From positions 1 through 26,789 of IMG/VR virus record IMGVR_UViG_2568526722_000004: a stretch of 26,789 nucleotides of DNA; one strand, given 5' to 3'. The notes below the pieces were generated by a model. That model had not been told where the DNA came from. It did no database searches and was given only the letters and a program-made list of their open reading frames with translations. The translations under genes were made by a program, and so were the position numbers. The DNA comes from a virus. Lineage: Duplodnaviria; Heunggongvirae; Uroviricota; Caudoviricetes. Shown one piece after another: positions 589 to 25,421 of the stretch (its first letter is position 1; every line of letters starts with the position of its first letter).

Positions 589-595
589 GGTCACC

Positions 596-1393: not shown

Positions 1394-1412
1394 ACTTCGT
1401 TTCTCCTCTTAA

Positions 1413-1775: not shown

Positions 1776-1784
1776 GACCGACCT

Positions 1785-2123: not shown

Positions 2124-2683
2124 GCGTTAGTTTCTCCACAGTCACGACACGCCACGGCGCCCGGAGCTGCACACTCGCGGGCGTCACTACTTTCTGAAAC
2201 GCAAAAGATTTTGTAGACCAGTGCTGCATGCTCCTGCAGCTTCGAAATTGAGAGGTACAGCTCATCGTTAATTGCTGTCTTCTCATGCGGTTCCACTACA
2301 CCGTCTTCAATTGCTGAACGAATCTGTTTTGAATAACTGCCGATCTGTTCAATGACTTCCAGCAGGCGTTGGTTGATATCGGCGTTGTCCACATCCTCGA
2401 CGTCAGGAAGAGACACAAAGACGCCATTTGCAGACTGCGCCACAGCATCAGCAATGAAGTGAGTGCCACCAGCACGCTGTAAAACCATTGCCCATCCCAG
2501 CGGGAAAATCTGATCGCCATCTGCACGAAGGCGGTTGAATAAAGCGTTTTCTGTTACATCGAGCCAGTCAGCCGCTTCAGCGTAACCACCCGGCAACGCC
2601 GCGATAGTTTTTCTGACAGCTTTCACGTACCACTCAGGCTGTTTTTCTATTTTCCAGTGATGCTTACCCACGGTTAGCCTCAT
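2120..2683 (-). CDS. Phage CII-like regulatory protein (YdaT-like)
   Basis: 187-aa ORF directly downstream of the Cro-like gene; position and composition resemble YdaT/CII-like proteins of Rac-type prophages. Confidence 0.5.
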
Positions 2684-2714
2684 CGTTCTGTGGTTAAAAA
2701 TTGAAAGTGTTCTG

Positions 2715-2915
2715 CTAATCTTTCGGATAGATATCCGGTCTTAAGTCAGATTTCGTAATTGCACCTGACGTGCATTGCTCAAGTTTTTTAGCCAGCACAA
2801 AACTGGCTTTTTTATAGCCATTGAAAACCAGCCGTAAGTAGCCAGGTGTTGAGCCAACTTTTCCGGCCAACTCGCCCTGCTGTTCTTTGGTTAAAGAGTC
2901 CCAATACGCTTTCAT
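2715..2915 (-). CDS. Cro/YdaS-like HTH transcriptional regulator
   Basis: 66-aa protein from the internal ATG at 2915 with GGAGGT RBS (the longer 167-aa track ORF has a non-protein-like N-terminal extension); HTH segment ...ELAGKVGSTPGYLRLVFNGYKKASFVLAKKLEQCTSGAITKSDLRPD; divergent from the CI-like gene. Confidence 0.6.
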   Translation of the reverse strand: MKAYWDSLTKEQQGELAGKVGSTPGYLRLVFNGYKKASFVLAKKLEQCTSGAITKSDLRPDIYPKD

Positions 2916-2918
2916 ACA

Positions 2919-2990
2919 ATATGTACCTCCGGTATACATATTACATGATTGAAATGAACCTTCAAGATACTTGTACCTTAACGGTACAAG
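2919..2990. promoter_or_regulatory. Divergent operator/promoter region between Cro-like and CI-like genes
   Basis: Two palindromes with TGTACC half-sites: AATATGTACCTCCGGTATACATATT (2919-2942) and CTTGTACCTTAACGGTACAAG (2970-2990); the same half-site recurs at the promoter after the CI-like gene. Confidence 0.5.
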
Positions 2991-3005
2991 GGTTTTAATT
3001 TCGTT

Positions 3006-3680
3006 ATGAAAACAATCCATGACATCCGGCGGTCTAACGCCAGAAAACTGAGAGATGGTGTTGGCGGGAATTCTTCCTTTGCCACTATGATTGATCGCGA
3101 GCCAACCCAGACCAGCAGGTTTATGGGAGATGGTGCTACTAAAAATATCGGTGACAGCATGGCACGACACATCGAAAAATGTTTCGACCTGCCTGTCGGA
3201 TGGCTCGATCAAGAACACCAGACAACGAACATCACAAAAAAACCTGATGTTTCAATCACTAATAAACAAATCACATTAGTCCCTGTCATATCATGGGTAC
3301 AGGCCGGAGCATGGAAAGAAGTTGGATATTCTGAGGTTGATTTGAGCACAGCAGAAACGTATCCCTGCCCTGTACCCTGTGGGGAAATGACTTATATCTT
3401 GCGGGTGATAGGTGATTCAATGATTGATGAGTACCGCCCGGGAGACATGATTTTTGTCGATCCTGAAGTACCTGCCTGCCACGGTGACGACGTTATTGCA
3501 TTGATGCACGATACAGGCGAAACCACCTTCAAAAGGTTGATAGAAGATGGGACACAGCGTTATCTCAAAGCGTTAAACCCAAACTGGCCTGAGCCTTACA
3601 TTAAGATCAACGGTAATTGCTCTATAATTGGTACAGTGATTTTCTCAGGAAAACCAAGAAGATACAAAATCAAAGCCTAA
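3006..3680 (+). CDS. CI-like phage repressor with LexA/S24 peptidase C-terminal domain
   Basis: 224-aa ORF; C-terminal ...YILRVIGDSMIDEYRPGDMIFVDPEV... has the GDSM serine motif of the S24 (LexA/CI) autopeptidase family; divergent from the Cro-like gene; followed by a terminator. Confidence 0.75.
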   Translation: MKTIHDIRRSNARKLRDGVGGNSSFATMIDREPTQTSRFMGDGATKNIGDSMARHIEKCFDLPVGWLDQEHQTTNITKKPDVSITNKQITLVPVISWVQAGAWKEVGYSEVDLSTAETYPCPVPCGEMTYILRVIGDSMIDEYRPGDMIFVDPEVPACHGDDVIALMHDTGETTFKRLIEDGTQRYLKALNPNWPEPYIKINGNCSIIGTVIFSGKPRRYKIKA

Positions 3681-3692
3681 TCAATGTTTATG

Positions 3693-3716
3693 AACCTGCT
3701 TCGGCAGGTTTTTTTA
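3693..3716 (+). terminator. Rho-independent terminator after the CI-like gene
   Basis: AACCTGC-TTCG-GCAGGTT hairpin followed by a run of T (3709-3715). Confidence 0.7.
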
Positions 3717-3719
3717 TAC

Positions 3720-3752
3720 TTGACAATGTACCTTTGAGATACATAATGTACC
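3720..3752 (+). promoter_or_regulatory. Sigma70-like promoter (pL-like) with flanking TGTACC operator half-sites
   Basis: TTGACA (3720-3725), 17-bp spacer, CATAAT (3742-3747); ATGTACC at 3726-3732 and 3746-3752 overlap the promoter elements. Confidence 0.5.
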
Positions 3753-3914
3753 CAAGCGAAACAACGAACAGGCAGGACGCCCACGAAGTAGCCGCCTGGA
3801 GCATATGAAGTCCAGGATGATTCGTTAGCAACAAAAAAGCGCCCTACAGGACGCTTAGCTCTTTAACAATCTGGTCCCCATCAACAAGTAACTGATAACT
3901 TGAGGAGATGTGAA

Positions 3915-4121
3915 ATGCACAAAACAGAACCCAAAATCGTCGCGCCTGGCTACACAGATGAGGAAATTTATGAGTGGATGACAAAGAAGCTGGCAGCTAT
4001 AAACCAGCTTCGTGAAGTGCTGTCTTATCGACAGGAAACAATAGACTCCTTAAAAAAACTGGATCAGGAAATCACGGTTTTATCACAGGATGTTACTTTA
4101 GATATTGTGCAGACAAATTAG
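3915..4121 (+). CDS. Hypothetical small protein
   Basis: 68-aa ORF from the ATG at 3915, preceded by GAGGAG; the track ORF uses an upstream TTG at 3900. Confidence 0.35.
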   Translation: MHKTEPKIVAPGYTDEEIYEWMTKKLAAINQLREVLSYRQETIDSLKKLDQEITVLSQDVTLDIVQTN

Positions 4122-4527
4122 GATCCCATTCATTTTCGTCAAAATCATCAAAGTGATGAATTTGTGATCTCCAGTCTCGATAATCTAAAAATTTCTGGGC
4201 GGTTACGCTTATTTTATCAAGTGTGAGTTCATCCTGAATTGAAAGAAGAAGTTCATCAAATTTCATCTCATTAATCTGTTTTGGCATCCAGTGATGCTTC
4301 ATCAGAATAAGGTGAACCAGAGCCTTTTTCCCATTCAACTGATTATAGGGAGTGCCGAATTTCTTCCGGTGCTCATGTAAGACAAGGTCCAAAAGAGTAA
4401 GTAATGTTGCCCTTGATTCAACTTTGCTTATTTCGACTGATGACACTACCCCACTGATTTCAATGCCCCGATACTTTCCAACATTTTCACAGTGGGATTT
4501 GTACAGCGTATAGATATTACCGGACAT
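4093..4527 (-). CDS. Hypothetical protein (AT-rich moron, opposite strand to the surrounding operon)
   Basis: 144-aa ORF with AAGGA RBS; markedly AT-rich compared with its flanks; convergent with the upstream small gene; preceded by two direct repeats. Confidence 0.5.
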   Translation of the reverse strand: MSGNIYTLYKSHCENVGKYRGIEISGVVSSVEISKVESRATLLTLLDLVLHEHRKKFGTPYNQLNGKKALVHLILMKHHWMPKQINEMKFDELLLSIQDELTLDKISVTAQKFLDYRDWRSQIHHFDDFDENEWDPNLSAQYLK

Positions 4528-4542
4528 TTCTTTTCCTTTTGC

Positions 4543-4590
4543 GTTGTTGGGGATAACCAGATTAACCGAATCCTTGTTGTTGGGGAATAA
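4543..4590. repeat. Two direct repeats GTTGTTGGGGA(A)TAAC upstream of the moron gene
   Basis: GTTGTTGGGGATAAC at 4543-4557 and GTTGTTGGGGAATAAC at 4575-4590, 16-48 bp upstream of the start codon at 4527. Confidence 0.5.
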
Positions 4591-4995
4591 CTAGGTCCAC
4601 CTCGCCTGATGTGGCTAAAAGCAGGCACATAACAGCTAAGTATTTTCAACCAGAGAGAATCCTTAGCGTTGTGGTGAATGCGGCTCAGCGCACGCGGGTT
4701 AAGGTTGAGGCTGACAGTCGACCTTCTGTGGATACCCACCCGCCTGGTGTGCAACCTTCGCCAGGCACCGGGAGGCACCCGGCACCACAACTTTATGCTG
4801 TGTGTAGTCTTGGCGGTACCAGCTTGTACCCTTGCTTCCGGCTGGTACCGTCCTTTTTACAAAACAGAGAAGAGCATCACCGGACGACGGGCTCATAACC
4901 CAATCCATCCGGGCGGCAGTCACCGCAGGTGTTCTTCTCTGTTTTGTGGAGAAACTAACCGACCTTGCAGGGTCGATATGATGAGGAGCAGCAAA

Positions 4996-5358
4996 ATGGC
5001 TAGCGAACGCAGTACTGATGTGCAGGCATTTATCGGGGAGCTGGACGGCGGCGTATTTGAAACCAAAATCGGCGCAGTTCTCAGTGAAGTCGCTTCCGGT
5101 GTGATGAACACGAAAACCAAAGGTAAGGTCTCGCTCAACCTGGAAATCGAACCGTTTGATGAGAACCGAGTGAAAATCAAACACAAACTCTCATATGTTC
5201 GCCCGACTAACCGCGGGAAAATTTCCGAAGAAGACACCACCGAAACGCCGATGTATGTCAATCGCGGTGGTCGCCTGACTATTCTGCAGGAAGACCAGGG
5301 ACAGTTACTGACTCTTGCCGGTGAACCTGACGGAAAACTCCGCGCAGCAGGTCGTTAA
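4996..5358 (+). CDS. Hypothetical prophage protein (yfdP-like position)
   Basis: 120-aa ORF from the ATG at 4996 with AGGAG RBS; the longer track ORF 4678..5358 has an implausible GC-rich, non-protein-like N-terminal part. Confidence 0.5.
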   Translation: MASERSTDVQAFIGELDGGVFETKIGAVLSEVASGVMNTKTKGKVSLNLEIEPFDENRVKIKHKLSYVRPTNRGKISEEDTTETPMYVNRGGRLTILQEDQGQLLTLAGEPDGKLRAAGR

Positions 5359-5423
5359 TATCGTTTTTAATTAACTGATTATTTATCTCATCACTGAATA
5401 TCTTTATATAGTGAGGACTTATT

Positions 5424-6248
5424 ATGTCTCAGAACTTAGACGCAACCGCAATTAATCAAATCCATGCCCTTATTTCTGCTCAGGGTGTTAATGAAATTAT
5501 CAGTAAGATTGGTGCCGATGCTGTGGCATTGCCTGAGAATTTCCGCATTCATGATCTGGAAAAATTTAATTTAAATCGCTTCCGTTTCCGTGGTGCGCTT
5601 TCCACTGCCAGCATCGATGACTTTACCCGTTATTCTAAAGATCTTGCAGATGAAGGCACCCGCTGCTTTATCGATGCTGATAATATGCGTGCCGTCAGTG
5701 TGCTTAACCTGGGTACTATTGATGAACCAGGTCACGCAGATAACACCGCCACACTCAAACTGAAAAAGACAGCACCGTTCTCTGCTCTGTTGTCTGTTAA
5801 CGGCGAGCGTAACTCCCAGAAGTCACTAGCAGAATGGATTGAAGACTGGGCCGACTATCTTGTGGGCTTTGATGCTAATGGTGACGCTATTCAGGCAACA
5901 AAAGCGGCTGCGGCTGTCCGTAAAATCACGATTGAAGCAAACCAGACCGCTGATTTTGAAGATAATGACTTCAGCGGCAAACGCTCCCTGATGGAGTCTG
6001 TCGAAGCGAAGACCAAAGACATTATGCCAGTGGCATTTGAATTTAAATGCGTTCCGTTTGAAGGTCTGAAAGAACGCCCGTTTAAATTACGCCTCAGTAT
6101 TATCACTGGCGATCGTCCTGTACTGGTTCTGCGCATTATTCAGCTGGAGGCGGTGCAGGAAGAAATGGCTAACGAATTTCGTGATCTGCTTGTTGAGAAA
6201 TTCAAGGACAGCAAAGTAGAAACCTTTATTGGTACTTTCACCGCCTGA
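5424..6248 (+). CDS. yfdQ: Prophage protein, YfdQ-like (274 aa)
   Basis: 274-aa ORF; size and gene order (274/178/120/101 aa) match the yfdQ-yfdR-yfdS-yfdT block of E. coli CPS-53/KplE1 as I recall it; symbol assigned from memory, not verified. Confidence 0.5.
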
Positions 6249-6375
6249 TTTCATTACTGCAAATGCCCCTGCGGGGGCATTTATGGAAACGTAATTTACT
6301 CAATAATCGCCGGATGGTGAGGGATTCTTTTTACCAGAATTCAGCGCGGTGCAGCGCATATACGTGGAGAACAAA

Positions 6376-6912
6376 ATGTCATTTATTAAAACTTTTTCCG
6401 GGAAGCATTTTTATTATGACAGGATAAATAAAGACGACATCGATATTAACGATATCGCGGTTTCCCTTTCAAATATCTGTCGCTTTGCCGGTCATCTTTC
6501 GCACTTCTACAGCGTCGCCCAACATGCGGTTCTTTGCAGCCAGCTGGTGCCGCAGGAATTTGCTTTTGAAGCGTTAATGCATGATGCAACAGAAGCGTAT
6601 TGCCAGGACATTCCCGCACCACTGAAACGCCTTCTTCCTGACTATAAACAAATGGAAGAAAAAATAGACGCCGTAATCCGTGAGAAATACGGGTTACCCC
6701 CAGTTATGAGTACGCCCGTGAAATATGCCGATCTCATCATGCTGGCAACCGAACGCCGCGATCTCGGACTTGATGATGGCTCTTTCTGGCCTGTATTGGA
6801 AGGTATCCCGGCAACAGAGATGTTCAAAGTGATTCCACTGGCTCCAGGCCATGCCTACGGGATGTTTATGGAACGTTTTAACGAGTTATCGGAGTTACGC
6901 AAATGCGCATGA
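6376..6912 (+). CDS. yfdR: HD-domain protein, YfdR-like 5'-deoxynucleotidase
   Basis: 178-aa protein from the ATG at 6376 with GGAGAA RBS; has H..HD-type metal-binding motifs (CRFAGH, MHDATEAY) typical of HD-domain phosphohydrolases. Confidence 0.55.
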   Translation: MSFIKTFSGKHFYYDRINKDDIDINDIAVSLSNICRFAGHLSHFYSVAQHAVLCSQLVPQEFAFEALMHDATEAYCQDIPAPLKRLLPDYKQMEEKIDAVIREKYGLPPVMSTPVKYADLIMLATERRDLGLDDGSFWPVLEGIPATEMFKVIPLAPGHAYGMFMERFNELSELRKCA

Positions 6913-7265
6913 ATGTTTTCGAAATGGAAGGGTTTCTTCGCGGGAAATGTGTACCGCGAGATCTGAAAGTGAACGAAACAAATGCTGAGTACCTGGTACG
7001 TAAATTCGATGCGCTTGAAGCTAAATGTGCAGCACAGGAAAACAAAGTAATACCAGTGTCAACTGAACTGCCACCAGCAAATGAAAGTGTTTTGTTATTC
7101 GATGCTAACGGAGAAGGCTGGCTAATTGGCTGGCGTTCTCTCTGGTACACCTGGGGACAAAAAGAAACCGGAGAATGGCAGTGGACATTTCAGGTCGGGG
7201 ACCTTGAAAACGTCAATATCACTCACTGGGCAGTAATGCCAAAAGCACCGGAGGCTGGAGCATAA
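6903..7265 (+). CDS. yfdS: Prophage protein, YfdS-like
   Basis: 120-aa ORF overlapping the yfdR-like stop; size and order match CPS-53 yfdS from memory. Confidence 0.45.
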   Translation: MRMNVFEMEGFLRGKCVPRDLKVNETNAEYLVRKFDALEAKCAAQENKVIPVSTELPPANESVLLFDANGEGWLIGWRSLWYTWGQKETGEWQWTFQVGDLENVNITHWAVMPKAPEAGA

Positions 7266-7570
7266 TGACCACTTTTACCGACAAAGAACTGATTAAAGAA
7301 ATTAAAGAGCGTATCAGCAGCCTTGACGTGCGAGACGATATTGAGCGCCGTGCTTATGAAATCGCACTCCTATCTCTGGAAGTAGAACCAGATGAACGCG
7401 AAGCTTATGAATTATTCATGGAAAAGCGTTTCGGTGACTTAGTAGATCGTCGGAGAGCAAAAAACGGCGATAACGAATACATGGCATGGGATATGACTCT
7501 CGGTTGGATCGTCTGGCAGCAACGAGCTGGTATCCATTTTTCAACAATGTCACAGCAAGAGGTGAAATAA
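7265..7570 (+). CDS. yfdT: Prophage protein, YfdT-like
   Basis: 101-aa ORF with stop/start overlap on both sides; size and order match CPS-53 yfdT from memory. Confidence 0.45.
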   Translation: MTTFTDKELIKEIKERISSLDVRDDIERRAYEIALLSLEVEPDEREAYELFMEKRFGDLVDRRRAKNGDNEYMAWDMTLGWIVWQQRAGIHFSTMSQQEVK

Positions 7571-7920
7571 TGGAGCCATACAGCCTCACACTCGATGAGG
7601 CCTGTCATTTTCTCAAGATATCCAGACCGACTGCCATTAACTGGATACGCACAGGGCGTCTTCAGGCAACACGCAAAGATCCCACTAAGAATAAATCTCC
7701 TTACCTCACAACACGACAAGCCTGCATTGCGGCTCTTCAGTCTCCGCTGCATACTGTCCAGGTGAGCGCGGGTGATGGCATAACAGAGGAAAGAAAATGT
7801 CACTCTTCCGCAGAGGTGAAATATGGTACGCCAGTTTCACATTGCCGAACGGTAAAAGATTTAAACAGTCTCTTGGAACAAAGGACAAAAGGCAGGCGAC
7901 AGAACTCCATGACAAGCTAA
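7570..7920 (+). CDS. Excisionase-like HTH protein (Xis/AlpA-type)
   Basis: ATG at 7570 with AGGTGA RBS; N-terminal [31 protein letters not shown] is an excisionase-type HTH; sits directly upstream of the integrase; the frame stays open to 7920, overlapping int by 124 nt, so the 3' end is uncertain. Confidence 0.5.
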
Positions 7921-8960
7921 AGGCTGAAGCATGGCGGGTCAGCAAACTTGGTGAAATACCTGATATAACGTTCGAGGAAGCGTGTGTCAGGTGGCTTGAA
8001 GAGAAAGCACATAAAAAATCACTGGACGATGACAAAAGCCGGATCGGATTCTGGCTTCAACATTTCGCAGGAATGCAACTAAGAGACATTACTGAATCAA
8101 AAATTTATTCAGCAATGCAGAAAATGACGAACCGGCGTCATGAGGAAAACTGGAAACTCAGGGCAGAAGCATGCAGAAAAAAAGGGAAACCTGTTCCAGA
8201 ATACACGCCAAAACCAGCGTCCGTTGCAACGAAGGCTACGCATCTTTCATTTATAAAGGCCCTACTAAGAGCCGCAGAGCGTGAATGGAAAATGCTGGAT
8301 AAGGCACCAATTATTAAAGTGCCCCAACCAAAGAATAAACGGATCCGCTGGCTGGAGCCCCATGAAGCACAAAGGCTGATTGATGAATGTCCGGAGCCAT
8401 TAAAGTCTGTTGTTGAATTTGCACTGGCAACAGGCCTAAGACGCTCGAACATCATCAACCTTGAATGGCAACAAATAGATATGCAGCGCCGGGTGGCATG
8501 GATAAACCCGGAAGAGAGTAAATCAAACCGCGCAATTGGCGTTGCGCTGAATGATACTGCATGTCGCGTATTGAAAAAACAAATCGGGAATCATCACCGT
8601 TGGGTATTTGTGTACAAGGAAAGCTGTACCAAACCAGACGGAACGAAAGCGCCAACAGTCAGGAAGATGCGGTATGACGCAAACACAGCCTGGAAAGCGG
8701 CGCTGAGACGGACTGGTATTGATGATTTCAGATTTCACGACTTGAGACACACCTGGGCAAGTTGGCTGGTTCAAGCCGGAGTCCCGTTGTCAGTGTTACA
8801 GGAAATGGGAGGCTGGGAGTCTATCGAAATGGTTCGTCGATATGCTCACCTTGCACCTAATCACCTTACCGAACACGCACGGCAAATAGACTCGATCCTA
8901 AACCCATCGGTCCCAAATTTGTCCCAGTCAAAAAATAAGGAAGGTACTAATGATGTGTAA
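7797..8960 (+). CDS. Tyrosine recombinase, lambdoid phage integrase
   Basis: 387-aa ORF; N-terminus [14 protein letters not shown]... (arm-binding type); C-terminal catalytic region ...[40 protein letters not shown] with the conserved HxxR and Tyr motif; ends 13 nt before a copy of the thrW 3' end. Confidence 0.85.
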
Positions 8961-8972
8961 CTTATTGATTTA

Positions 8973-8990
8973 AATGGTGCGATAATAGGA
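8973..8990. repeat. att core repeat (copy of the thrW 3' end): attR of element A and attL of element B
   Basis: AATGGTGCGATAATAGGA matches 25344-25362 AATGGTGCCGATAATAGGA (18/19, one C missing), same orientation. Confidence 0.7.
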
Positions 8991-9307: not shown

Positions 9308-10288
9308 TCATGCTAAAGCTCGAGCTACATTTTCTTTGATCGCAATAGCACAAGGAGTTTTGAACTTTTCTTTGCAACAGTGTAATAGCGTATTAATATT
9401 CAAATCAGTTTCAAGAATATTTTTTAGCTCACTCTTTCTTTCCGAGATTAAGGTTGGTTTATCTTTGCATTGTTTGACTATTAAGGCAGTTTCATTAATA
9501 TTCAATTGCTCTATCAATGATTTTATGACAGGCATGACAACTCTATCAGCTAAAAAATGACCATTGATATATTGATAGGCGTTATCTTCTCTCAATCCTT
9601 TATCATATAACTGCTCATAGAATTTATCAGCATCGTATTCATCTTGAATAAGGTTATCAAGTTTTTCTTCAATAACCGCTTTAGATTGCTGCATACTTTC
9701 AAATACAGCATTTTTGATAACAAATTGGTTCGTTAATCGTGGCACAGAAGGAGCAATCGCTTCATGGAAAACTGAGTCATCAAGTCTAACTTGATGCTGT
9801 TTAAGCAATAAAAATTTCTTCAGCACGGGGTAGATCAACCGTGAATACTCTGTAATGTATGCTGTAAAATCGAATTTAATTTCAGTAGCGATCTTTATTT
9901 GAGAAAGACAATACTCAAGGACTTCATGGTGTAACTCGATGCTCTCTTTTGAATATACAAATGTTTGAAAAATAAACTTGTTACTGCAAATTATCTCTGA
10001 GTCTGTACTGTTTTTAGGGCATAAATAATCAAAATCACTATCCATTGCAAATATGGCATATCGATTTGCTCGGCTCATGAATTTTTTTAATACTGGTTTC
10101 CCTTTTGTTCCTTTATTGGTAGGGTTACAAATATCAAAACGTATATCATTATCTTTATCGTTTAATAAGCCTTCCCAGAAAGAAATGTCTTTTAGACCTT
10201 CAACAAAGACAAAGCCATTGTGTCCAGCCATAATACAATATACCTGAAGATATTCTTCGCTAAAATTAATATCCTCAAACTCAGTCAT
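9308..10288 (-). CDS. ariB: AriB-like DUF4435/Toprim protein (PARIS defense system effector)
   Basis: 326-aa ORF overlapping the upstream ATPase gene by 8 nt; N-terminal Toprim-like features (MAGHNGFVFVEGLKD..., acidic AIFAMDSDFDY); low GC; the pairing with an ABC-type ATPase is the PARIS (AriA/AriB) architecture. Confidence 0.6.
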   Translation of the reverse strand: MTEFEDINFSEEYLQVYCIMAGHNGFVFVEGLKDISFWEGLLNDKDNDIRFDICNPTNKGTKGKPVLKKFMSRANRYAIFAMDSDFDYLCPKNSTDSEIICSNKFIFQTFVYSKESIELHHEVLEYCLSQIKIATEIKFDFTAYITEYSRLIYPVLKKFLLLKQHQVRLDDSVFHEAIAPSVPRLTNQFVIKNAVFESMQQSKAVIEEKLDNLIQDEYDADKFYEQLYDKGLREDNAYQYINGHFLADRVVMPVIKSLIEQLNINETALIVKQCKDKPTLISERKSELKNILETDLNINTLLHCCKEKFKTPCAIAIKENVARALA

Positions 10289-11276
10289 GAGAAGATTCCT
10301 TTGAAATATTTTTTATATCTACGAAAGAATCCATCCAGCCTTTCATTAATATTGCAGGACTATGAGTAACAATAATTAACTGACAATTATCGTTAATTGA
10401 TTTGATGGTGCTTATTAATCTTTCTTGCCACGTAAGGTGCAAGGATATTTCTGGCTCATCCATCAACAAGACAGATTCATCCAATGAAGTATTAGCTGTT
10501 TTAATCAGAATATATAACAACTGACGTTCACCTGATGAAAGAAGATTATACCTAATATCTTCACCAGAATCACTCATCTTAATAGAAATGTTACCATTAC
10601 TAAAAGAAACAACTTTGTTACATTCAGCAAATAAATTATTTATAGCTGATTCCAACTTATCCTTTATGAGAATACCTTTAGACTCACTTACTTTGAAAGT
10701 ATTCTTTAACCTTTCTAATTCACCAGCAATTTCCATATCAAGAATTGTGGTGCGCTCACCATCACTTTTTTTGAATTCATAGATGGAATTGGCACTCATA
10801 TTGATAGTTGATATTAACTCAACATTTATTCGCTTAGTGTTTTTAATATTATCACTTACGCTAACAGTTCCCATCCCGAACTCTTTAATTTCAGTGTCTT
10901 CTTTTTTCGATTCAAGCAACTCAATAAGTTCATTTAACTCCTTTATTTCCTTACCCTTTGATTTACCTTTAATACTGTTTTTCTTAAGGTTATTAAGTAG
11001 GTTTAGAAGCTGGACAGAGTCAATTTCGCGAAAATTAACTTTGTGAGTAATTGTGCCTCCATTGGCCAATGTTATTTGAGCCAACGCAGCATTACTTAAA
11101 CTTTCATTTAATTCTTGTTTTAAGAGGGCAAAAACACTTTGAATTATCGTGCTCTTACCTGAGCCATTTTTACCCACTAAAACATTCACATCTTTTAAAC
11201 TCCAATCAATGTCCTTCCGTTTAAAAAGACCTTTGATTGCTATATTTTTGATTATCGTCGCCACTCTCGTATCCAT
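10281..11276 (-). CDS. ariA: AriA-like ABC/AAA_15-21 ATPase (PARIS defense system sensor)
   Basis: 331-aa ORF; Walker A GKNGSGKST, signature-like LSSGERQLL, Walker B LLMDEPE, H-loop IIVTHS; low GC. Confidence 0.65.
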   Translation of the reverse strand: MDTRVATIIKNIAIKGLFKRKDIDWSLKDVNVLVGKNGSGKSTIIQSVFALLKQELNESLSNAALAQITLANGGTITHKVNFREIDSVQLLNLLNNLKKNSIKGKSKGKEIKELNELIELLESKKEDTEIKEFGMGTVSVSDNIKNTKRINVELISTINMSANSIYEFKKSDGERTTILDMEIAGELERLKNTFKVSESKGILIKDKLESAINNLFAECNKVVSFSNGNISIKMSDSGEDIRYNLLSSGERQLLYILIKTANTSLDESVLLMDEPEISLHLTWQERLISTIKSINDNCQLIIVTHSPAILMKGWMDSFVDIKNISKESSHD

Positions 11277-17344: not shown

Positions 17345-19150
17345 TCATGTTCTGTCGTTAATGCCTGCCGTTGCTGGTAACCATCCATCAGCATCTTTAT
17401 CTAACAGAACATTTGTGATCGTTCGCCCTTTATCTGGACCTTTAGTGCATTTAGCCCGCTTGTACTCCTTTCCGTACTCAGCCATTGCCCCTGGCATATC
17501 TGTACCAAAGCGTGTCAGTGATACCGGTTTTCCCAGACCATGCGCAGACATATAAGCCAAATAAGCATGATACAGATATCGCCTCGGACTAAATGGCACT
17601 ATTTCTGCATTACCTACTATCATTCCCTCACATTTAACCAACGACATCAGATAACCGCAGAAGTCCACCAGCGAATCACCTTCACGCTTTATCAACAGTG
17701 CTTCTTCTGATTTTTGCTGCTCATAAAGTAGTCTTTTCGCTTCGTCCTGGTCGGCAAATCGTGTAAGCAAATGGCGAATCACTACTGCCAGTTCCCCTTC
17801 TATCTTTTTCGCCAGCATCGGATCGCGTTCGTTCTCTGGTACAACCTCAGAGAAATTAAATATTACTCGTCGACGCGAGATCCCCCCACTACGGTCGCTG
17901 AATGACATGGCATAATTGTTTACTGCCAGCACTACCGCAGGAACGCGCGTGGAATAGGGCGCTTTGTGTTTCGGATCGATAGCCACCTTGTCACCGCCTG
18001 TAATGGCCTTAATCCCAGCACCATCACCTGCGTAGCGGGTCATGTCAGGCATGATAATCAGAGAATATCCCACCACTAACGCTCGTTCCCTCGCGTCTTC
18101 CAGCGCCTTCATGCTCGCCGATACTGTATTGGCCTTACCCGCCAGCATGGTACAAATCTCCGCCATCACACTTTTACCGCTTCCGCCCGGCCCCGTTACC
18201 TCAAGGAATAACTGCCAGTCGTACCGGTTCGCCAGTACCATGAATAATGCCGCCAGTACGCGATCCGCTTTACGAGCATTATCCGCCACCGAACGACGCA
18301 ACCACTTCCAGAAATTCGGCGCATGTGTTGCCAGCGTTTCCCCCTCTTCTGGCGGGCTGAACGGTAATTCACTGGCATTTAACAACCAGTCATTTTTGTT
18401 GTGTTCCCGAAAATTTCCTGTCCTGATATCAAAAACACCGTTACTGAACCCAATAAGATTTCTGTCCGCTCCCCCCATAACAGGTAGACTCAATTTCATT
18501 GTCTCTACGGCAAATTTAATGGCGTTTTGCGAATAACTAATTTCGGCATCAATAAAAATCTTCGCCATAGACCGCTGGAGTTCCTTATCAGATACAGGCT
18601 CCCAAACAATTCCGTTGTAATGGTGAACTACATCAGAATCATCATTTATCGCCAGTGCTCCTCCATAATGTTCAAGTAACACTTCCCCTCTCTGGCTGGC
18701 TCCCATCTGATTTAATGCAGGCTTGGGTAGACCACTATTTTTTGTAGCTAATTTCATCACTGAAACTTCCCCGTGCTCAGCCTGTTCGCGGATCCGTTGC
18801 AGGTAGTCGCGCCAGTTCTCCGGTTCCTGGTCGGTGATACCTTTGTATAATTTCGCCTCCTGTACGCCAGCCAGCGCCAGCTTTTCAGCGATAGTATTGA
18901 TCTGGATTGGCTCTATCTCCCCCGCGATATAGACACGCGCAAAACGGCGTTTCTCGTCAATAATGCGGATATTCGCCAGGTCTGCCAGTTGCTTTGGCCC
19001 CAGGTAAACAGGAGGCACGTTATCGCCGTGTTTTCGTCCTTCACTTTCAATCCAGTGTTGAGCATGGGCGTAAGCATCCATCCCGGCAAAAATGATTACC
19101 TCAGTGAATTTATCCTTCGGCTGATATTTTAGACTCGGTGCGTTTTTCAC
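17345..19150 (-). CDS. Replication primase/helicase-like protein (P4 alpha / D5-type SF3 NTPase family)
   Basis: 601-aa ORF; Walker A in ...LEVTGPGGSGKSVMAE...; last gene of a tightly coupled operon; followed by the iteron array. Confidence 0.7.
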   Translation of the reverse strand: MKNAPSLKYQPKDKFTEVIIFAGMDAYAHAQHWIESEGRKHGDNVPPVYLGPKQLADLANIRIIDEKRRFARVYIAGEIEPIQINTIAEKLALAGVQEAKLYKGITDQEPENWRDYLQRIREQAEHGEVSVMKLATKNSGLPKPALNQMGASQRGEVLLEHYGGALAINDDSDVVHHYNGIVWEPVSDKELQRSMAKIFIDAEISYSQNAIKFAVETMKLSLPVMGGADRNLIGFSNGVFDIRTGNFREHNKNDWLLNASELPFSPPEEGETLATHAPNFWKWLRRSVADNARKADRVLAALFMVLANRYDWQLFLEVTGPGGSGKSVMAEICTMLAGKANTVSASMKALEDARERALVVGYSLIIMPDMTRYAGDGAGIKAITGGDKVAIDPKHKAPYSTRVPAVVLAVNNYAMSFSDRSGGISRRRVIFNFSEVVPENERDPMLAKKIEGELAVVIRHLLTRFADQDEAKRLLYEQQKSEEALLIKREGDSLVDFCGYLMSLVKCEGMIVGNAEIVPFSPRRYLYHAYLAYMSAHGLGKPVSLTRFGTDMPGAMAEYGKEYKRAKCTKGPDKGRTITNVLLDKDADGWLPATAGINDRT

Positions 19151-19437
19151 TTCTTACCTCCCGCAACCAACATTGCCCGGATTTTTTTAATATTCGTGGC
19201 TGCACGTCTCGCCACTGCCTGTTGTTTGTTTTCCACCACAATAAAATCACGATCAAACTGACGGCGCGGCATTACGCAGTCATATTCGTAAGCCTCACGG
19301 CGGTAGGTGATATTGCCTGGCGTAACGTGACGAATAACCACCCGTCCCCCGCGTCTGGTGTCCCGGAAAATATCACCGGGGCGGATTTCAGGCCGAGAGA
19401 GGCCGCTGGCAGTAAAGCCAGAATTTTTCTTTTTCAT
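19147..19437 (-). CDS. Hypothetical protein (replication operon)
   Basis: 96-aa ORF whose stop overlaps the primase start (ATGA). Confidence 0.45.
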   Translation of the reverse strand: MKKKNSGFTASGLSRPEIRPGDIFRDTRRGGRVVIRHVTPGNITYRREAYEYDCVMPRRQFDRDFIVVENKQQAVARRAATNIKKIRAMLVAGGKK

Positions 19438-19441
19438 GGTT

Positions 19442-19642
19442 TTATTTTCCTGTCAGCAGTTCCGGTTTTATTTCCGCACGAATACAAAGTTCAGAAAAAA
19501 ATTCAGGAGAACCAACAATCTCATTACTTTTCAGTCGGCATTGTGATTTCACTTTCCCTTTATCCAGGTAAACCAGTACGCGTCCGGTGAAATCATCTGG
19601 CACATTAAGCACTACGGGTACATGCGCTTCATGATTATGCAT
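19442..19642 (-). CDS. Hypothetical protein (replication operon)
   Basis: 66-aa ORF; start overlaps the upstream stop by 8 nt. Confidence 0.4.
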   Translation of the reverse strand: MHNHEAHVPVVLNVPDDFTGRVLVYLDKGKVKSQCRLKSNEIVGSPEFFSELCIRAEIKPELLTGK

Positions 19643-19868
19643 GGCTTACATCCTCCGTGAATTTTCTTCTGTAACGCGTCTCTGCCACATATTCCGCATA
19701 GTCCGACGCAATACTAAGAATCATTTCACCCTCTGACTTGTAGCCACTGGTATTGATAAGAAAATATGCAGCTTTCATCATGTCAGCAACGCTCAACAAT
19801 GCGCCCGCTGCATCTTCCGGTGCGCCATCAAATTCCCGTTTCAGGGAATTAAAACGATCATCACGCAT
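19635..19868 (-). CDS. Hypothetical protein (replication operon)
   Basis: 77-aa ORF; start overlaps the upstream stop by 8 nt. Confidence 0.4.
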   Translation of the reverse strand: MRDDRFNSLKREFDGAPEDAAGALLSVADMMKAAYFLINTSGYKSEGEMILSIASDYAEYVAETRYRRKFTEDVSHA

Positions 19869-20226
19869 GTTTACCCCCCTGAATGACCTGATAACCGCAA
19901 CTGGTCAGCAACTCGATAAATTCCGGCAGTGTGCCGAAACAGCAATCATCACGCAGCCGTTCGCGGGATACTTCAACGCCGTTTTCGTAGTGACTCACCA
20001 TACGCCCGGTAAAATGCAGATCATCATCGTGATGGCTCGTTGACGGCTTAATCAGTCGCGCACGTTCCGCCAGTTCCAGCAATGCTTCAACGCTTCCGGC
20101 AATTGCACCATCCGGCAGGTGGTAATTACGCACTATGCGCCCGTTCTCCACATTGACCAGCAACTGCCCGGTAAATTTCTCGTCAAACTGAATGCTGTTA
20201 AGGTCAGAAATTGACAGGTTATGCAT
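19861..20226 (-). CDS. Hypothetical protein (replication operon)
   Basis: 121-aa protein from the second ATG (20226), which has a perfect AGGAGG RBS 6 nt upstream; the track start at 20244 is less likely. Confidence 0.45.
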   Translation of the reverse strand: MHNLSISDLNSIQFDEKFTGQLLVNVENGRIVRNYHLPDGAIAGSVEALLELAERARLIKPSTSHHDDDLHFTGRMVSHYENGVEVSRERLRDDCCFGTLPEFIELLTSCGYQVIQGGKHA

Positions 20227-20443
20227 GGTGCACCTCCTGCACATCAGCCATGATAATTTTTCCGGCCTTATCCAGTGCCTGATCGGCTTTTAGCTGCACA
20301 AATGCTAAATAATGGGAGATGCATTCTGATTCTCTGGCTGCGTGTTTATGCGCCACACCAGCGATAGCAGAAATCTCAATAAGTGAATCCATCAGCGTTT
20401 TGATAGCGTCTACCGCTGCATCAGGCCATGTTGCATTACACAT
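20219..20443 (-). CDS. Hypothetical protein (replication operon)
   Basis: 74-aa ORF; start overlaps the upstream stop by 8 nt. Confidence 0.4.
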   Translation of the reverse strand: MCNATWPDAAVDAIKTLMDSLIEISAIAGVAHKHAARESECISHYLAFVQLKADQALDKAGKIIMADVQEVHHA

Positions 20444-20639
20444 GTTCCACCTCCTGGCGAATACGGGCGGCGAATACCATCACGCAGCCATCAGGAGATT
20501 GCTGGCGTGCTTCCTGTTCGCTGGTGGCCTCGATGTGAATTACGCGCGGTTGTGCCGTGCTCAGGGCGATAAAACGCCAGATGTATTTATTCAGGTTGTG
20601 CGAGTCCCGCCCTTGCGGGTGTGTGGTATGATTTCTCAT
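20436..20639 (-). CDS. Hypothetical protein, first gene of the replication operon
   Basis: 67-aa product from the ATG at 20639 with GAGGT RBS, just downstream of the operator region; it is the plausible C-terminal segment of the 435-aa track ORF. Confidence 0.4.
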   Translation of the reverse strand: MRNHTTHPQGRDSHNLNKYIWRFIALSTAQPRVIHIEATSEQEARQQSPDGCVMVFAARIRQEVEHV

Positions 20640-20735
20640 AGCTACCTCGATACTCTTGCTATCGTTGGTGGTTAGACGCCCTGCATGTGTGCCACCACTG
20701 CGGGGCGTTGTCGTTTCTGCACCTTGCATCAACAA

Positions 20736-20789
20736 GGTGTTGAACACCAATTTAAGCCCAGGTGTTAAACACGTCAAGTGTTGAACACT
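20736..20789. promoter_or_regulatory. Three 13-bp palindromic operators (GTGTT-N-AACAC) in a divergent promoter region
   Basis: GGTGTTGAACACC (20736-20748, perfect), GGTGTTAAACACG (20761-20773), AGTGTTGAACACT (20777-20789, perfect); between the RHH gene (20839, +) and the replication operon (20639, -). Confidence 0.6.
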
Positions 20790-20838
20790 TATTTTTTTTC
20801 CTGCATACTGCATTTGTTTTTTGTAAGGGGTACACAAC

Positions 20839-21018
20839 ATGGCGACAAAAGCAGTAAACGCAAAATCACAAACAGTTGCGGCAAGGGTTCCGCATGAAGT
20901 TATGAACAATGTTGAGGCGGTAAAAATGCCTGGTGAAAGTACAGGGCAGTTTGTAACAGCAGCATTAAAGCGAGAAGTTGAATACCGCCAGCGCCGCAAG
21001 GCCAAAGAACAGGAGTAA
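20839..21018 (+). CDS. Ribbon-helix-helix (Arc/CopG-like) small DNA-binding protein, candidate repressor
   Basis: 59-aa ORF (below the track's length cutoff) read by hand: MATKAVNAKSQTVAARVPHEVMNNVEAVKMPGESTGQFVTAALKREVEYRQRRKAKEQE; beta-strand/helix/helix pattern; AGGGG RBS-like upstream; only gene on the opposite strand in this block. Confidence 0.5.
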   Translation: MATKAVNAKSQTVAARVPHEVMNNVEAVKMPGESTGQFVTAALKREVEYRQRRKAKEQE

Positions 21019-21329
21019 CCATCACCAGCGCCGTGGTGTGAGGAACTACGGTGCATCGTTTTACAGGGCTGCGCCATGACCAACAAAAAATCAACCAATA
21101 CACCATCACCGGCACGGAAAAGACAGCGCAGAAAGATAGCGTACGAGCATGAGTCAAACAGATTCGCGCCCTGTGCGTTTATCCTTGAGAAATTCCTTAA
21201 AGAGTACAGGCGCACAAAAATGGGGTCGCATACCTGGAAAACATCGCGGCATGGCAATGTTAAAGAGCAGGAATAGCCCACCAGCAAGCCAGCATATTCA
21301 CCATAATGACCCTCAGTTAAACATAGAGT

Positions 21330-21743
21330 CATTGGTGCAAAGCTGACACATTGCCCACCAGCCGCAAATCTGGCATTGTTGGCGATGCGTTCAAGTATGT
21401 AGCTTTCCCACTGGCGGCCCTCTGCGGTCGCCTTTGTTTTATCCAGAACGAAATCAGACATCAGATTGATCAGCACCTGGCGACCTGACAAAATCGCATC
21501 AGTCGCGCCACCAGCAAAATTTTTTGCTTTCCGGACAGTGTGACCAACGACATTTTGCAGCAAAATATTCTGCATTTCTGGCGTGCTGTAGTAACGGTGA
21601 TCAGCGCCTTCACTCTGTGCGACCACAACGCTATAATCTGCCTCGTAGACAGTAAGCAATATGGCGCAGTAGGCTATTCGTTCACAAAGGCGCTCCGGCA
21701 ACGGGGCGCTTTCTCTTTTTGTAACGGTCAGAGCGTTACACAT
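21330..21743 (-). CDS. Hypothetical protein co-transcribed with the antirepressor; 3' end undefined
   Basis: ATG at 21743 overlaps the antirepressor stop by 8 nt; the first ~140 codons look protein-like, but the frame has no stop until 20436 and runs through the + strand RHH gene and operators, so the true end is unknown (21330 is arbitrary). Confidence 0.3.
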
Positions 21744-22536
21744 GGCTGTTTTCCTCCATGCGACGGGCTAACCAACGCTGCGAAAGACGAATTAATTCAG
21801 CCTTCCGCTGGTGGTAGTCCTGGCCTAACTCAATCAGCGTGATATTGCTCTGCTCAAGGTAAGAAAGGTGCTCAAGCTGCAACGTGCTCATGTGGTCGCG
21901 TGGTTCGCCTGTAATGCCGTTCGCCAGTGCCCACTGTTTTGCAGTCATGCCACCCAGCACGATACGCGCCAGCATGTTCGCTTCCGTGGTGTAGTGGTGC
22001 TGGAGTGTGTTTTTACCCAGTTCAGCCCGGTACGCCTCCAGCGCGGCACACATTGGCTTAAAGTAGCTGGCAACTGTGATACGGGCTTTCAGTTCCCGGC
22101 GTAACGCTGCGGAACGAACAGGCGCAACCTTGTGTAGCTCCTCCTCGCATTTGATAAAGTACTGGCGAACGGCGCGGCCCTGTTCGGTACGTTCGACCAT
22201 CGCCAGTTCTTTCGCCATGTTCACGGTGATGATGTACTCAAGAGCTGTTTGCTGGCGAGATTTTGCGCTCACCGGATCGGGTCGGCTCAAATATTCAACA
22301 ACCTCATAATCCACGCCTTCCGTGAAGCCGTATTCTTCAATGCGCCCCTTGATCCACGAACGGAAAACGCGCCCTACACCTAACGCCTTATGTAACGCTC
22401 TGGCACTAACAATATTGGTTTCACTCCCGCCAATAACGCCGGAAATAATCGGGATAATATCGCCGAGATTTTGCAGATTCTGGTTTTCAGGCCGAACGAA
22501 GCCCCGCCCCTGTACGGGCATTTTTGGAAATTTCAT
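21736..22536 (-). CDS. Phage antirepressor (Ant/Rha-type)
   Basis: 266-aa ORF; segment ...ALEYIITVNMAKELAMVERTEQGRAVRQYFIKCEEEL... is characteristic of phage antirepressor/Rha-type proteins. Confidence 0.55.
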   Translation of the reverse strand: MKFPKMPVQGRGFVRPENQNLQNLGDIIPIISGVIGGSETNIVSARALHKALGVGRVFRSWIKGRIEEYGFTEGVDYEVVEYLSRPDPVSAKSRQQTALEYIITVNMAKELAMVERTEQGRAVRQYFIKCEEELHKVAPVRSAALRRELKARITVASYFKPMCAALEAYRAELGKNTLQHHYTTEANMLARIVLGGMTAKQWALANGITGEPRDHMSTLQLEHLSYLEQSNITLIELGQDYHQRKAELIRLSQRWLARRMEENSHV

Positions 22537-22613: not shown

Positions 22614-22811
22614 TCAGGTAGCTGTTCCGCGTGATTCCGCAATACGCTGATTAATCCACTCGTCAATTTCACTCTCAACGAAAGCAATAGCTCGCGAGCC
22701 AATTTTAACTGATGCAGGAAATTTACCTTGCCCCATAAGGCGATAAATCCATGCCTTGCTATATCCAGTTCTACGCTGAACTTCTGTTAAACGAATAAGC
22801 GTATTTGACAT
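22614..22811 (-). CDS. alpA: AlpA-family phage transcriptional regulator
   Basis: 65-aa ORF: MSNTLIRLTEVQRRTGYSKAWIYRLMGQGKFPASVKIGSRAIAFVESEIDEWINQR, a typical AlpA HTH; sits downstream of a P4-type integrase. Confidence 0.8.
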   Translation of the reverse strand: MSNTLIRLTEVQRRTGYSKAWIYRLMGQGKFPASVKIGSRAIAFVESEIDEWINQRIAESRGTAT

Positions 22812-23964: not shown

Positions 23965-25179
23965 TCACCCGCATTTTCCGAACTCACCATGCACCACATT
24001 TCCGCCATGCTCGAGCGAATCCATATAATCAGCGTACCACTGAAGCATTTCCCGCCGCCCATCCAGATATTGCGCATGGTTGTATGTGCCACGAATTGAG
24101 TTTTTATCGACGTGCGCAAGCTGTGTCTCTATCCACGCGGTGTTATAGCCCTGCTCATGCAAAATGGTGCTCATAGTGTGCCGGAAGCCATGACCAGTAA
24201 CCTTTCCGTTATAGCCGATGCGTTTAAATACTTGGTTTATGCTAGCCTCGCTCATTGTTTTCCTTGGATCATTACGGCCGGGAAACATAAGCGGATAATT
24301 GCCAGTTAGTTCTTTAATCTGCCCAATAAGCGAAAGAGCCTGCTCAGACAAAGGCACTACATGAGGGCGACGCATTTTCATCCGTGAAGCAGGTATCTCC
24401 CAGATAGCCTTGTTGAGATCGATTTCATCCCATAATGCACCGCGCAGTTCGCCAGTCCGCAAACCGGTGATAATCAGTAAACGAGCCGCCATAACAACCA
24501 ATGCACTTCCTGAGTAACTGGACAATGCCTTGAAAAAATCAGGTAATTCTTTGGCTGTGAGGAAAGGATAATGATTAGATTCATGACCTTGCATCGCGCT
24601 GGTGAGATCCGGTGCAGGGTTATACTCAGCACGTCCAGTGACAATTGCATAGCGGAAAACTTCCCCACATCGCTGCCTCACTTTTTTGGCTTTTTCGGTA
24701 GCACCGCGCCCCTCGATGCGCCGCAGCACATTCAGCAGTTCAAGTGGTTTGATTTCGGCGATTGGTTTTTTGCCAATGTAAGGGAACACATCTTTGTTGA
24801 AGGCTTCGAGGATGTCTGAAGCATAACCAGCAGACCATTTTTTTAATTTGCTGCTGTGCCACTCAAGGGCAATATCTTTGAAGGTGTTGTTTAACTGCGT
24901 TTCCCGGGCAATCTTTTCCTCTCGTTTCGCTTCCATCGGATCGATACCCCCAGCGATACCCCTTTTAGCTTCTTCACGTTTTGCACGAGCATCAGCCAAG
25001 GTAACTTCAGGATACACACCTAGTGCTAACAGCTTCTCTTTACCAGCTACACGATACTTGAAGCGCCAATATTTTCCTCCACTAGGTTTTACCAAGAGAT
25101 ACAGACCACCACCATCAGCCAGCTTGTAAGCCTTCTCTTTTGGCTTGGCAGTGTCTATTTGACGGGCATTGAGTTTCAC
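23965..25179 (-). CDS. Tyrosine recombinase, P4-type integrase
   Basis: 404-aa ORF next to and co-oriented with thrW; N-terminal MKLNARQIDTAKPKEKAYKLADGGGLYLLVKPSGGKYWRFKYR... (P4-integrase N-terminal domain type) and C-terminal ...GHGFRHTMSTILHEQGYNTAWIETQLAH...Y catalytic region. Confidence 0.9.
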   Translation of the reverse strand: MKLNARQIDTAKPKEKAYKLADGGGLYLLVKPSGGKYWRFKYRVAGKEKLLALGVYPEVTLADARAKREEAKRGIAGGIDPMEAKREEKIARETQLNNTFKDIALEWHSSKLKKWSAGYASDILEAFNKDVFPYIGKKPIAEIKPLELLNVLRRIEGRGATEKAKKVRQRCGEVFRYAIVTGRAEYNPAPDLTSAMQGHESNHYPFLTAKELPDFFKALSSYSGSALVVMAARLLIITGLRTGELRGALWDEIDLNKAIWEIPASRMKMRRPHVVPLSEQALSLIGQIKELTGNYPLMFPGRNDPRKTMSEASINQVFKRIGYNGKVTGHGFRHTMSTILHEQGYNTAWIETQLAHVDKNSIRGTYNHAQYLDGRREMLQWYADYMDSLEHGGNVVHGEFGKCG

Positions 25180-25343: not shown

Positions 25344-25362
25344 AATGGTGCCGATAATAGGA
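25344..25362. repeat. att core at the thrW 3' end (attL of element A)
   Basis: AATGGTGCCGATAATAGGA overlaps the last 17 nt of the tRNA gene; imperfect direct repeat at 8973-8990. Confidence 0.7.
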
Positions 25363-25421
25363 GTCGAACCTACGACCTTCGCATTACGAATGCGCTGCTC
25401 TACCAACTGAGCTATATCGGC
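25346..25421 (-). tRNA. thrW: tRNA-Thr (anticodon CGU)
   Basis: Reverse complement is GCCGATATAGCTCAGTTGGTAGAGCAGCGCATTCGTAATGCGAAGGTCGTAGGTTCGACTCCTATTATCGGCACCA: 76 nt, cloverleaf-compatible, anticodon loop TTCGTAA, encoded CCA; sits immediately downstream of proA as thrW does in E. coli. Confidence 0.95.

Follow-up and report, generated by a model that had tools for sequence, protein, structure and literature searches.

Small repressors that provide local immunity are known from the immI region of phage P22, where Mnt and Arc, both ribbon-helix-helix (RHH) proteins, act at the divergent Pmnt and Pant promoters. The immI region of P1 and P7 is ordered c4 RNA, icd, ant and is regulated in P1 by an antisense RNA, while the Stl proteins of staphylococcal pathogenicity islands (SaPIs) are large helix-turn-helix (HTH) proteins with a helper-protein-binding domain. 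In P4, the eta frame starts at the end of vis, holds the internal promoter PLE and the CI and seqA RNAs, and ends as Kil; its translation stops termination of transcription from the upstream late promoter (PMC10111431). In Gram-negative phage-inducible chromosomal islands (PICIs), the master regulator shown experimentally, in EcCIMP1 and EcCICFT073, is the activator AlpA (PMC11773190, PMC6092414), and a paper on EcCICFT073 described the existence of a repressor in these islands as unclear and their difference from Gram-positive islands as a mystery (PMC6092414). Here we analysed IMG/VR virus record IMGVR_UViG_2568526722_000004 (positions 1 to 26,789, referred to below as the window), which contains an island of this type. 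Between its antA gene and the Icd-like gene that heads its primase operon lies a gene for a 59-amino-acid (aa) YlcI/YnfO-family protein, a predicted RHH repressor (20839..21018, +), preceded by three short palindromes. From comparative sequence evidence we conclude that the protein probably represses the Icd/primase operon locally, in the manner of an immunity repressor, and also regulates itself. An RHH repressor/operator immunity cassette controlling this operon from inside an Eta-like read-through open reading frame (ORF) is the best explanation of the whole, and in our estimate a probable one.

The motif GTGTTNAACAC occurs exactly at 20737-20747, 20762-20772 and 20778-20788, within 52 bp, and has no other exact match in the 26.8 kb. 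Allowing one mismatch gave 4 matches against 0.87 expected, a number reached in 0 of 100 shuffles, and a search of the island for further copies with two mismatches allowed gave no credible extra site. All three palindromes are perfect at 11 bp. A preliminary description of this DNA had placed them between the 59-aa gene and the first gene of the primase operon and had counted two of them as perfect at 13 bp; both statements proved exact, with the Icd-like gene starting at an ATG at 20639 (-), the perfect 13-bp palindromes at 20736-20748 (GGTGTTGAACACC) and 20777-20789 (AGTGTTGAACACT), and the third (20761-20773, GGTGTTAAACACG) failing at the outermost pair only.

A consensus scan predicted a leftward sigma-70 promoter (-) consisting of TTGACG (20777-20772), a 17-bp spacer and TAAATT (20754-20749), from which the Icd-like gene and the DUF4222/primase operon would be transcribed. 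Predicted operator O1 (GTGTTGAACAC, 20737..20747, at -102 from the RHH-gene ATG) spans the edge of the -10 element and the predicted +1 of this promoter, and O2 (GTGTTAAACAC, 20762..20772, at -77) takes up 11 of the 17 spacer bp. The third predicted operator, O3' (GTGTTGAACAC, 20778..20788, at -61), abuts the leftward -35 and overlaps the -35 of a putative promoter of the RHH gene itself (TTGAAC, 17 bp, CATACT; 20780..20808, +); the latter was read by eye and scores 8/12, below the scan threshold. Since the predicted Icd/primase promoter has O2 in its spacer and O1 over its -10/+1, repression of the replication operon is the natural reading. The leader of the leftward transcript (20640..20745, -) is predicted to fold into three hairpins (minimum free energy -38.1 kcal/mol, z = -2.97). 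The first (CACCTTG..CAAGGTG) abuts O1 and recurs in other site classes with different loops; in the third, the Shine-Dalgarno sequence of the Icd-like gene is base-paired. The middle hairpin, in plus-strand orientation, is terminator-like, with a T-rich tail.

About 40 related loci were compared, comprising 33 from one-genome-per-species contigs, 6 from E. coli genomes, that of EcCICFT073 and 7 reached through four further homologues. They come from more than ten genera, including Escherichia, Edwardsiella, Salmonella, Klebsiella, Kosakonia and Pectobacterium, with others from Serratia, Leclercia, Proteus, Xenorhabdus and elsewhere. Counted from the ATG of the homologue, the sites stand at -102 (or -98), -77 and -32, with the third at -61 in the class of the window; in loci L006 and L049, -32 and -61 are both occupied. 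The -32 site of most other classes lies over the -10/+1 of the RHH-gene promoter, and the O1 position (-102/-98) holds a class-specific 11-mer in nearly all related loci. The leftward -35 TCAA is the most conserved intergenic element across classes, with a -10 mostly of the TATAGT/TATACT type, and the RHH-gene -10 (TATACT in most loci) is conserved at -36..-31. In the window, the spot of the -32 operator is occupied by a 12-nt inverted repeat (20806-20817/20845-20856, 11 of 12 positions complementary) that flanks the ribosome-binding site and start codon of the RHH gene.

The 11-mer changes in all copies of a locus together, which defines about 11 classes (at least 11), and the class shifts together with the N-terminal arm and strand of the 59-aa protein. 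Residues 11-16 reading QT[VLI]AAR go with the site GTGTT[GA]AACAC, [KR]KLEAR with GTGTCAGCCAC, KRFDVR with GTGTC[CG]GACAC, QKLQ[AT]R with GTGGA[CT]TCCAC, QKMSAR with CTGGCACCCAG, QALKAR or QSLKSR with GTGTGGCCCAC, QMTTVR with GTGTATTTCAC and QS[VL]TAR with GTGTAAGACAC; further classes exist. Where residues 11-15 were identical the mean site distance was 0.29, and where they differed at two or more positions it was 3.5, with a minimum of 1.5. Distances over residues 2-15 correlated with site distances (Mantel r = 0.665), and the correlation persisted when the helices were taken into account (partial r = 0.62, p = 1e-4). Four out-of-sample predictions, fixed before the sites were looked at, were all correct: E. 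coli P0044 carries GTGTCAGCCAC, Salmonella P0056 carries GTGTCGGACAC, Klebsiella P0033 carries GTGTT[AG]AACAC, and P0060 has K14 together with the site of the QALKAR class.

Sites and protein are also exchanged as a unit. Compared with L037, L038 and L040, the window shows 90-100% identity from -380 to -130 (the Icd gene and leader), about 50% identity from -125 to +140, and 90% again from +145, so that nothing but the sites and RHH codons 1-47 lies within the exchanged segment. Islands of different class occur together in two Xenorhabdus genomes, two in each (L016/L027 and L018/L029). Joint swapping of sites and repressor is the pattern of an immunity region. Given the concerted co-variation of sites and protein, the swapping of the cassette and the four correct out-of-sample predictions, the three palindromes are very probably operators of the 59-aa protein. 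A cassette with GTGTGGCCCAC sites is present in the model island EcCICFT073, and the cassette matches DNA in 1886 of 5426 complete E. coli genomes, about a third; with an experimentally tractable island among its carriers, the repressor question becomes directly testable.

We next considered the protein. The preliminary description had taken the 59-aa ORF for a gene, and this held. It has a Shine-Dalgarno-like AAGGGG 8 nt 5' of its ATG, matches the NCBIfam model NF041551 (YlcI/YnfO) over residues 9-50 with 59.7 bits (cutoff 30, E = 2e-16) as well as phrog_949, and PGAP gives the identical protein, WP_000201462.1, the YlcI/YnfO-family name. The namesakes, YlcI (DLP12) and YnfO (Qin) of E. coli K-12, are small prophage proteins of the same family; a literature search for a functional study of the family found none, YlcI and YnfO occurring only in listings. 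Homologues are spread over Enterobacterales, and the family is narrow, accounting for only 77 clusters (50% identity) in a set of 1.84 billion representatives; in 50,697 phage records, tblastn gave no homologue at 1e-3. The frame has a pN/pS (ratio of nonsynonymous to synonymous change) of 0.09 in close pairs. It shares its wobble positions with a long antisense frame described below, and a transversion test that discriminates between the two was therefore used. Transversions made up 123 of 1085 differences (11%) at sites two-fold degenerate in the sense codon and four-fold in the antisense codon, and 272 of 770 (35%) in the reverse case, and therefore selection acts on the 59-aa frame. Its conserved residues persist at about 50% nucleotide identity, and its Shine-Dalgarno sequence and ATG are conserved. 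The ORF is a real gene.

Invariant or nearly invariant residues are N7, K9, S10, R16, P18, H19, E26, K29, G32-E33-S34-T35, F38, E46 and R50. Among these, G32-E33-S34-T35 corresponds to the G-x-S/T/N turn that caps helix 2 of RHH proteins and is invariant or nearly so in all homologues. The preliminary description had ascribed an RHH-like pattern to the protein; the turn and an RHH-like structure model are in keeping with this, and the fold appears RHH-like, although no RHH sequence model and no solved protein was matched. Searches of Pfam gave no HTH family match, and sequence searches of the Protein Data Bank (PDB) gave no match. A second, different RHH-like 59-aa ORF (PFQFRLDPDLREKM...) was seen in the E. 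coli island L045 (1885-2064, +), 500 bp downstream of its YlcI/YnfO gene, with its own AT-rich palindrome TGTGTATATACACA ahead of it.

The cassette lies antisense within a long open frame. The Icd-like (Kil-like) gene, the first of the replication operon, is in its short form 67 aa long (20436..20639, -), matches NF033153 at 1.5e-19 and has GAGG 5 nt before its ATG; its start codon and N-terminus are conserved in L039. The same frame is stop-free for 435 codons (20436..21743, -). It starts 8 nt inside the end of antA and finishes with the Icd-like domain, after crossing in antisense a 66-aa plus-strand ORF, the RHH gene and then the operators. PGAP calls only 134 of these codons, as an Icd-like coding sequence (CDS) extended across the operators to 20840. 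In at least 24 of 34 loci the long frame stays open over 200-500 codons, and it measures 434 codons in EcCICFT073 (L044 7752-9053, +). Among 20 class representatives, 18 have no stop in it between -301 and +290, compared with 6-22 stops in the other frames. Inside the RHH gene, the antisense frame stayed open in about 20% of synonymous resamplings and was observed open in 20/20. Most related loci and EcCICFT073 conserve it as an open frame, not as a protein sequence, and this computational evidence shows selection for keeping it open. Antisense nesting with selection on both strands makes the locus an unusually clear case of overlapping constraints.

This arrangement recalls P4, in which eta comprises 197 codons (open at 8171-8761) and the C-terminus of Eta/Kil matches the Icd-like model NF033153 at 1.2e-20. 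Both C4 and isrK RNAs are present in P4 and in the E. coli island L039, which at 1261-1446 (-) carries isrK (80 bits) and C4 (75 bits) in addition to an RHH/operator cassette, all in the same long ORF. The L039 long ORF also contains a Phage_ASH domain. Rfam searches of the window, at gathering scores and at E <= 10, found neither C4 nor isrK, only tRNA-Thr and int-alpA RNA. The cassette may be an additional or alternative, protein-based control inside the Eta-like ORF.

From these observations we propose the following mechanism. A dimeric RHH repressor, through its N-terminal arm and beta-ribbon, would read the 11-bp (pseudo)palindromes. While the island is at rest, it would occupy O2, in the spacer of the strong leftward promoter, and O1, at its -10/+1, keeping the Icd/Kil-like gene and the DUF4222-primase replication operon off, while binding at the third site, which here falls on the -35 of the repressor gene's promoter and in most relatives on its -10/+1, would limit repressor synthesis. 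Protein and operators would together be an immunity cassette that is exchanged as one piece and exists in at least 11 specificities. When a helper phage turns on alpA, transcription and translation of alpA-antA would probably cross the cassette into the replication operon; this read-through runs against the repressor gene and could both bypass and silence the repressor. Comparative evidence for the repression half is strong, though binding, repression and autoregulation are, like the read-through or interference step, things that we infer; the read-through half we infer from the conserved open frame and the P4 precedent. If true, the model explains how Icd/Kil and replication stay silent in such satellites, shows how co-resident satellites remain mutually non-immune, and yields a set of small orthogonal repressor/operator pairs. 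Only tentatively do we extend it to a general statement, namely that Gram-negative PICIs and related satellites, including EcCICFT073, carry an overlooked immunity cassette, and that AlpA-driven translated read-through bypasses and silences the repressor and flips the satellite to replication, with the openness of the Eta-like ORF held by synonymous-codon selection in the repressor gene.

The preliminary description had gone further, seeing in the 59-aa protein a master repressor switch analogous to Stl or CI, though much smaller. The sites do sit as predicted operators over the Icd/primase promoter, and to that extent the idea survives; a master role is only partly supported, because the published master activator is AlpA and the island has no other sites, and the absence of further operator copies points instead to a local switch. 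The analogy itself falls away, since fold and size differ from those of Stl and of lambda CI and we found no evidence for Stl-like derepression by a helper-phage protein.

Several observations weigh against a local RHH repressor read in this way. Concerning the fold, the 59-aa protein matched no Pfam RHH family at E <= 10, and hhalign against Arc gave a probability of 2%, in an alignment that brings the RVPxEV...G-x-S register into line with Arc. Concerning specificity, the residue set 2-15 was picked post hoc; residues 11-15 alone, considered as the determinant, gave a weak partial Mantel correlation with the rest of the protein controlled (r = 0.18, p = 0.04), so that this narrower assignment was rejected and part of the co-variation is to be read as plain linkage. 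Loci L027 and L029 are identical at residues 9-18, yet their sites differ at 2-3 positions. A separate PLE-like promoter lies directly upstream of isrK/C4 in L039, which rules out the RHH-controlled promoter as a strict positional equivalent of P4 PLE. Finally, the activator AlpA has been named master regulator and deletion of alpA abolishes induction (PMC6092414, PMC11773190), an outcome that a simple repressor model does not predict.

The AlpA dependence of induction in such islands (PMC6092414, PMC11773190) also lends something to the alternative that fares best, in which the 59-aa protein binds the sites as a Cro-like or late modulator, as a roadblock or insulator against read-through from alpA/antA, or as an activator of one of the two promoters; the sites do lie in the path of any transcript from alpA/antA. 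The position of O2 in the spacer and O1 at +1 is, by contrast, the classic geometry of occlusion, the RHH gene points away from the replication genes in the manner of a maintenance repressor, and the many classes, with different classes in co-resident islands, fit a repressor that determines specificity. We therefore consider a role other than maintenance unlikely.

A different reader of the palindromes, such as AlpA, the Icd-like protein, an iteron-binding initiator, an antisense peptide or a host protein, would reduce the co-variation to linkage, and operator distance does also track the rest of the RHH protein (r = 0.38-0.60), as linkage would have it. Set against this, Icd-like proteins at least 90% identical (window, L037, L038 and L040) are found beside operators of four classes, three classes in Xenorhabdus share an identical AlpA protein and the same holds for three classes in E. 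coli, and L037 and L041 share a class although their replication proteins differ (DUF927 primase and RepA helicase). These comparisons computationally exclude that specificity comes from AlpA, Icd or the replication proteins, and a host factor is an unlikely reader because the classes differ within E. coli. For an antisense peptide there is no constraint at the amino-acid level, as the 35% of transversions at antisense two-fold sites against 11% at sense sites indicates, and the swapped cassette consists of nothing beyond the sites and RHH codons 1-47. Taken together, another reader seems very improbable. The Icd-like protein had to be considered as the repressor in its own right, since phrog_6196 and phrog_1743 are named 'transcriptional repressor'; the four operator classes found with near-identical Icd-like proteins led us to reject it. 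An old P4 CDS annotated 'cI gene product' (L042 8168-8584), which overlaps eta/kil, bears the same product label. The PHROG name of the Icd/Kil-like family was probably inherited from this label and is therefore not evidence of repressor function.

About equally remote is an antitoxin-type autoregulator acting on its own operon, the RHH gene plus the co-oriented 66-aa basic ORF downstream (21076..21276, +; hypothetical protein in PGAP, phrog_21027 at 5e-32), and not on replication. The existence of this ORF contradicts the earlier statement that the RHH gene is the only one on the opposite strand. It has no toxin-family match and is present in some E. coli loci only, being absent from most loci that keep the cassette; the RHH protein lacks a C-terminal toxin-binding extension; and two of the three sites lie on the divergent promoter, not its own. 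With no toxin-family match and no conserved cognate toxin gene, the toxin-antitoxin reading was rejected. The restricted distribution of the 66-aa ORF likewise means that it is not the specificity factor. Its EcCICFT073 homologue has 57 aa (L044 8243-8416, -), and the two share SPARKR.RRKI...RFAPCAF.LE.FLKEYR. A hairpin with a weak T tail stands just 3' of the RHH stop (21028..21054, +), and the EcCICFT073 homologue is followed by the same hairpin. Farther along, a conserved terminator-like hairpin followed by TTTGTTTTAT (21413..21441, +) probably closes the RHH transcription unit; read antisense it translates as 'DKTKA..GR', which is seen again in L003, L006, L012 and L031.

That the 59-aa ORF is untranslated, the long minus-strand ORF being the sole real gene and the palindromes elements of RNA or DNA structure, would suit the 435 open codons and the PGAP Icd-like CDS that crosses the operators to 20840, but is scarcely credible given the pN/pS, the residues conserved at about 50% nucleotide identity, the curated-family match, the RHH-like model and the conserved Shine-Dalgarno sequence and ATG.

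Returning to the predicted local RHH repressor, its closest counterpart in function is P22 Mnt/Arc and in context the P4 immunity region. With P22 Mnt it shares a small RHH repressor divergent from the operon it silences, operators lying over back-to-back promoters, autoregulation (here predicted) and a second, local layer of immunity beside a main regulator. It differs in having no detectable sequence homology, as the hhalign comparison with Arc illustrates, and in having three separate 11-bp sites where P22 has one 17-21-bp operator bound by a tetramer; in addition, the operon here comprises Icd/Kil and replication genes and not an antirepressor, and the repressor gene is antisense within a long ORF. 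P4 has the same order of an AlpA/Vis homologue, a long ORF ending as an Icd/Kil-like protein and a primase operon (PMC10111431), as well as an internal promoter within the long ORF and a start of that ORF at the end of the upstream gene; isrK and C4 within the same ORF are shared by L039. The window differs from P4 in lacking a C4 or isrK match, and control of the internal promoter here would be exerted by a protein repressor and operators; P4 has no RHH-type repressor gene, and in L039 the RHH and PLE-like promoters are separate.

With the P1/P7 immI region the locus shares an Icd-type leader gene that heads an operon and whose expression acts as a gate on the genes that follow; P1 uses an antisense RNA as its regulator, whereas the window has no C4 match. 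Like the genes for SaPI Stl and Gram-positive PICI Rpr, the RHH gene is divergent from the excision/replication side of the satellite and presumably silences its replication genes; unlike them, it encodes a 59-aa RHH-like protein, and induction in Gram-negative islands is governed by the activator AlpA (PMC6092414). A search of the phage-satellite literature found no paper using the term ribbon-helix-helix.

The setting is that of a Gram-negative PICI. At its right end the window carries proA and tRNA-Thr(CGT) (25346-25421), and the 10-bp attachment (att) core TCCTATTATC is found only at 8981 and at 25353, the latter within the tRNA-Thr beside proA; the two copies delimit an island of 16.4 kb. 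The layout int - alpA - (Bro/AntA) - replication module, with a tRNA site and att repeats, is present. On the minus strand, int (23965-25179) is followed by a 267-aa ORF, alpA (22614-22811; Pfam Phage_AlpA, 2e-19) and antA (21736-22536; Pfam AntA, 2.5e-23). Beyond the Icd-like gene, the downstream replication operon (17345-20443, -) contains four small ORFs, DUF4222 and the P4-type primase (17345-19150, -), and the rest of the island, also on the minus strand, contains ProQ/FinO, a frameshifted PerC and accessory genes. EcCIMP1 likewise uses tRNA-Thr next to proA; phage Kapi1 mobilises it, and alpA is required for it to excise and be transferred (PMC11773190). The present island agrees with it in site, att core and gene set, which places the cassette in a functional type of Gram-negative phage satellite.

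Some further features of the window were noted. Rfam int-alpA RNA (RF02996; 23853-23920, -; 45.5 bits against a gathering score of 35.8) matches just downstream of int and ahead of the 267-aa ORF, and is found in L003, L007 and L023 too. In tandem with the island, at the same att core, sits an unrelated second integrative element (1-8980), with its own integrase (7797-8960, +); a search of this element for a YlcI/YnfO homologue or a second copy of the cassette found neither. The island also carries a PARIS anti-phage system, identified with PADLOC (9308-11276, -), consisting of AriB (DUF4435, 3.6e-22) and AriA (AAA ATPase, 2.6e-43).

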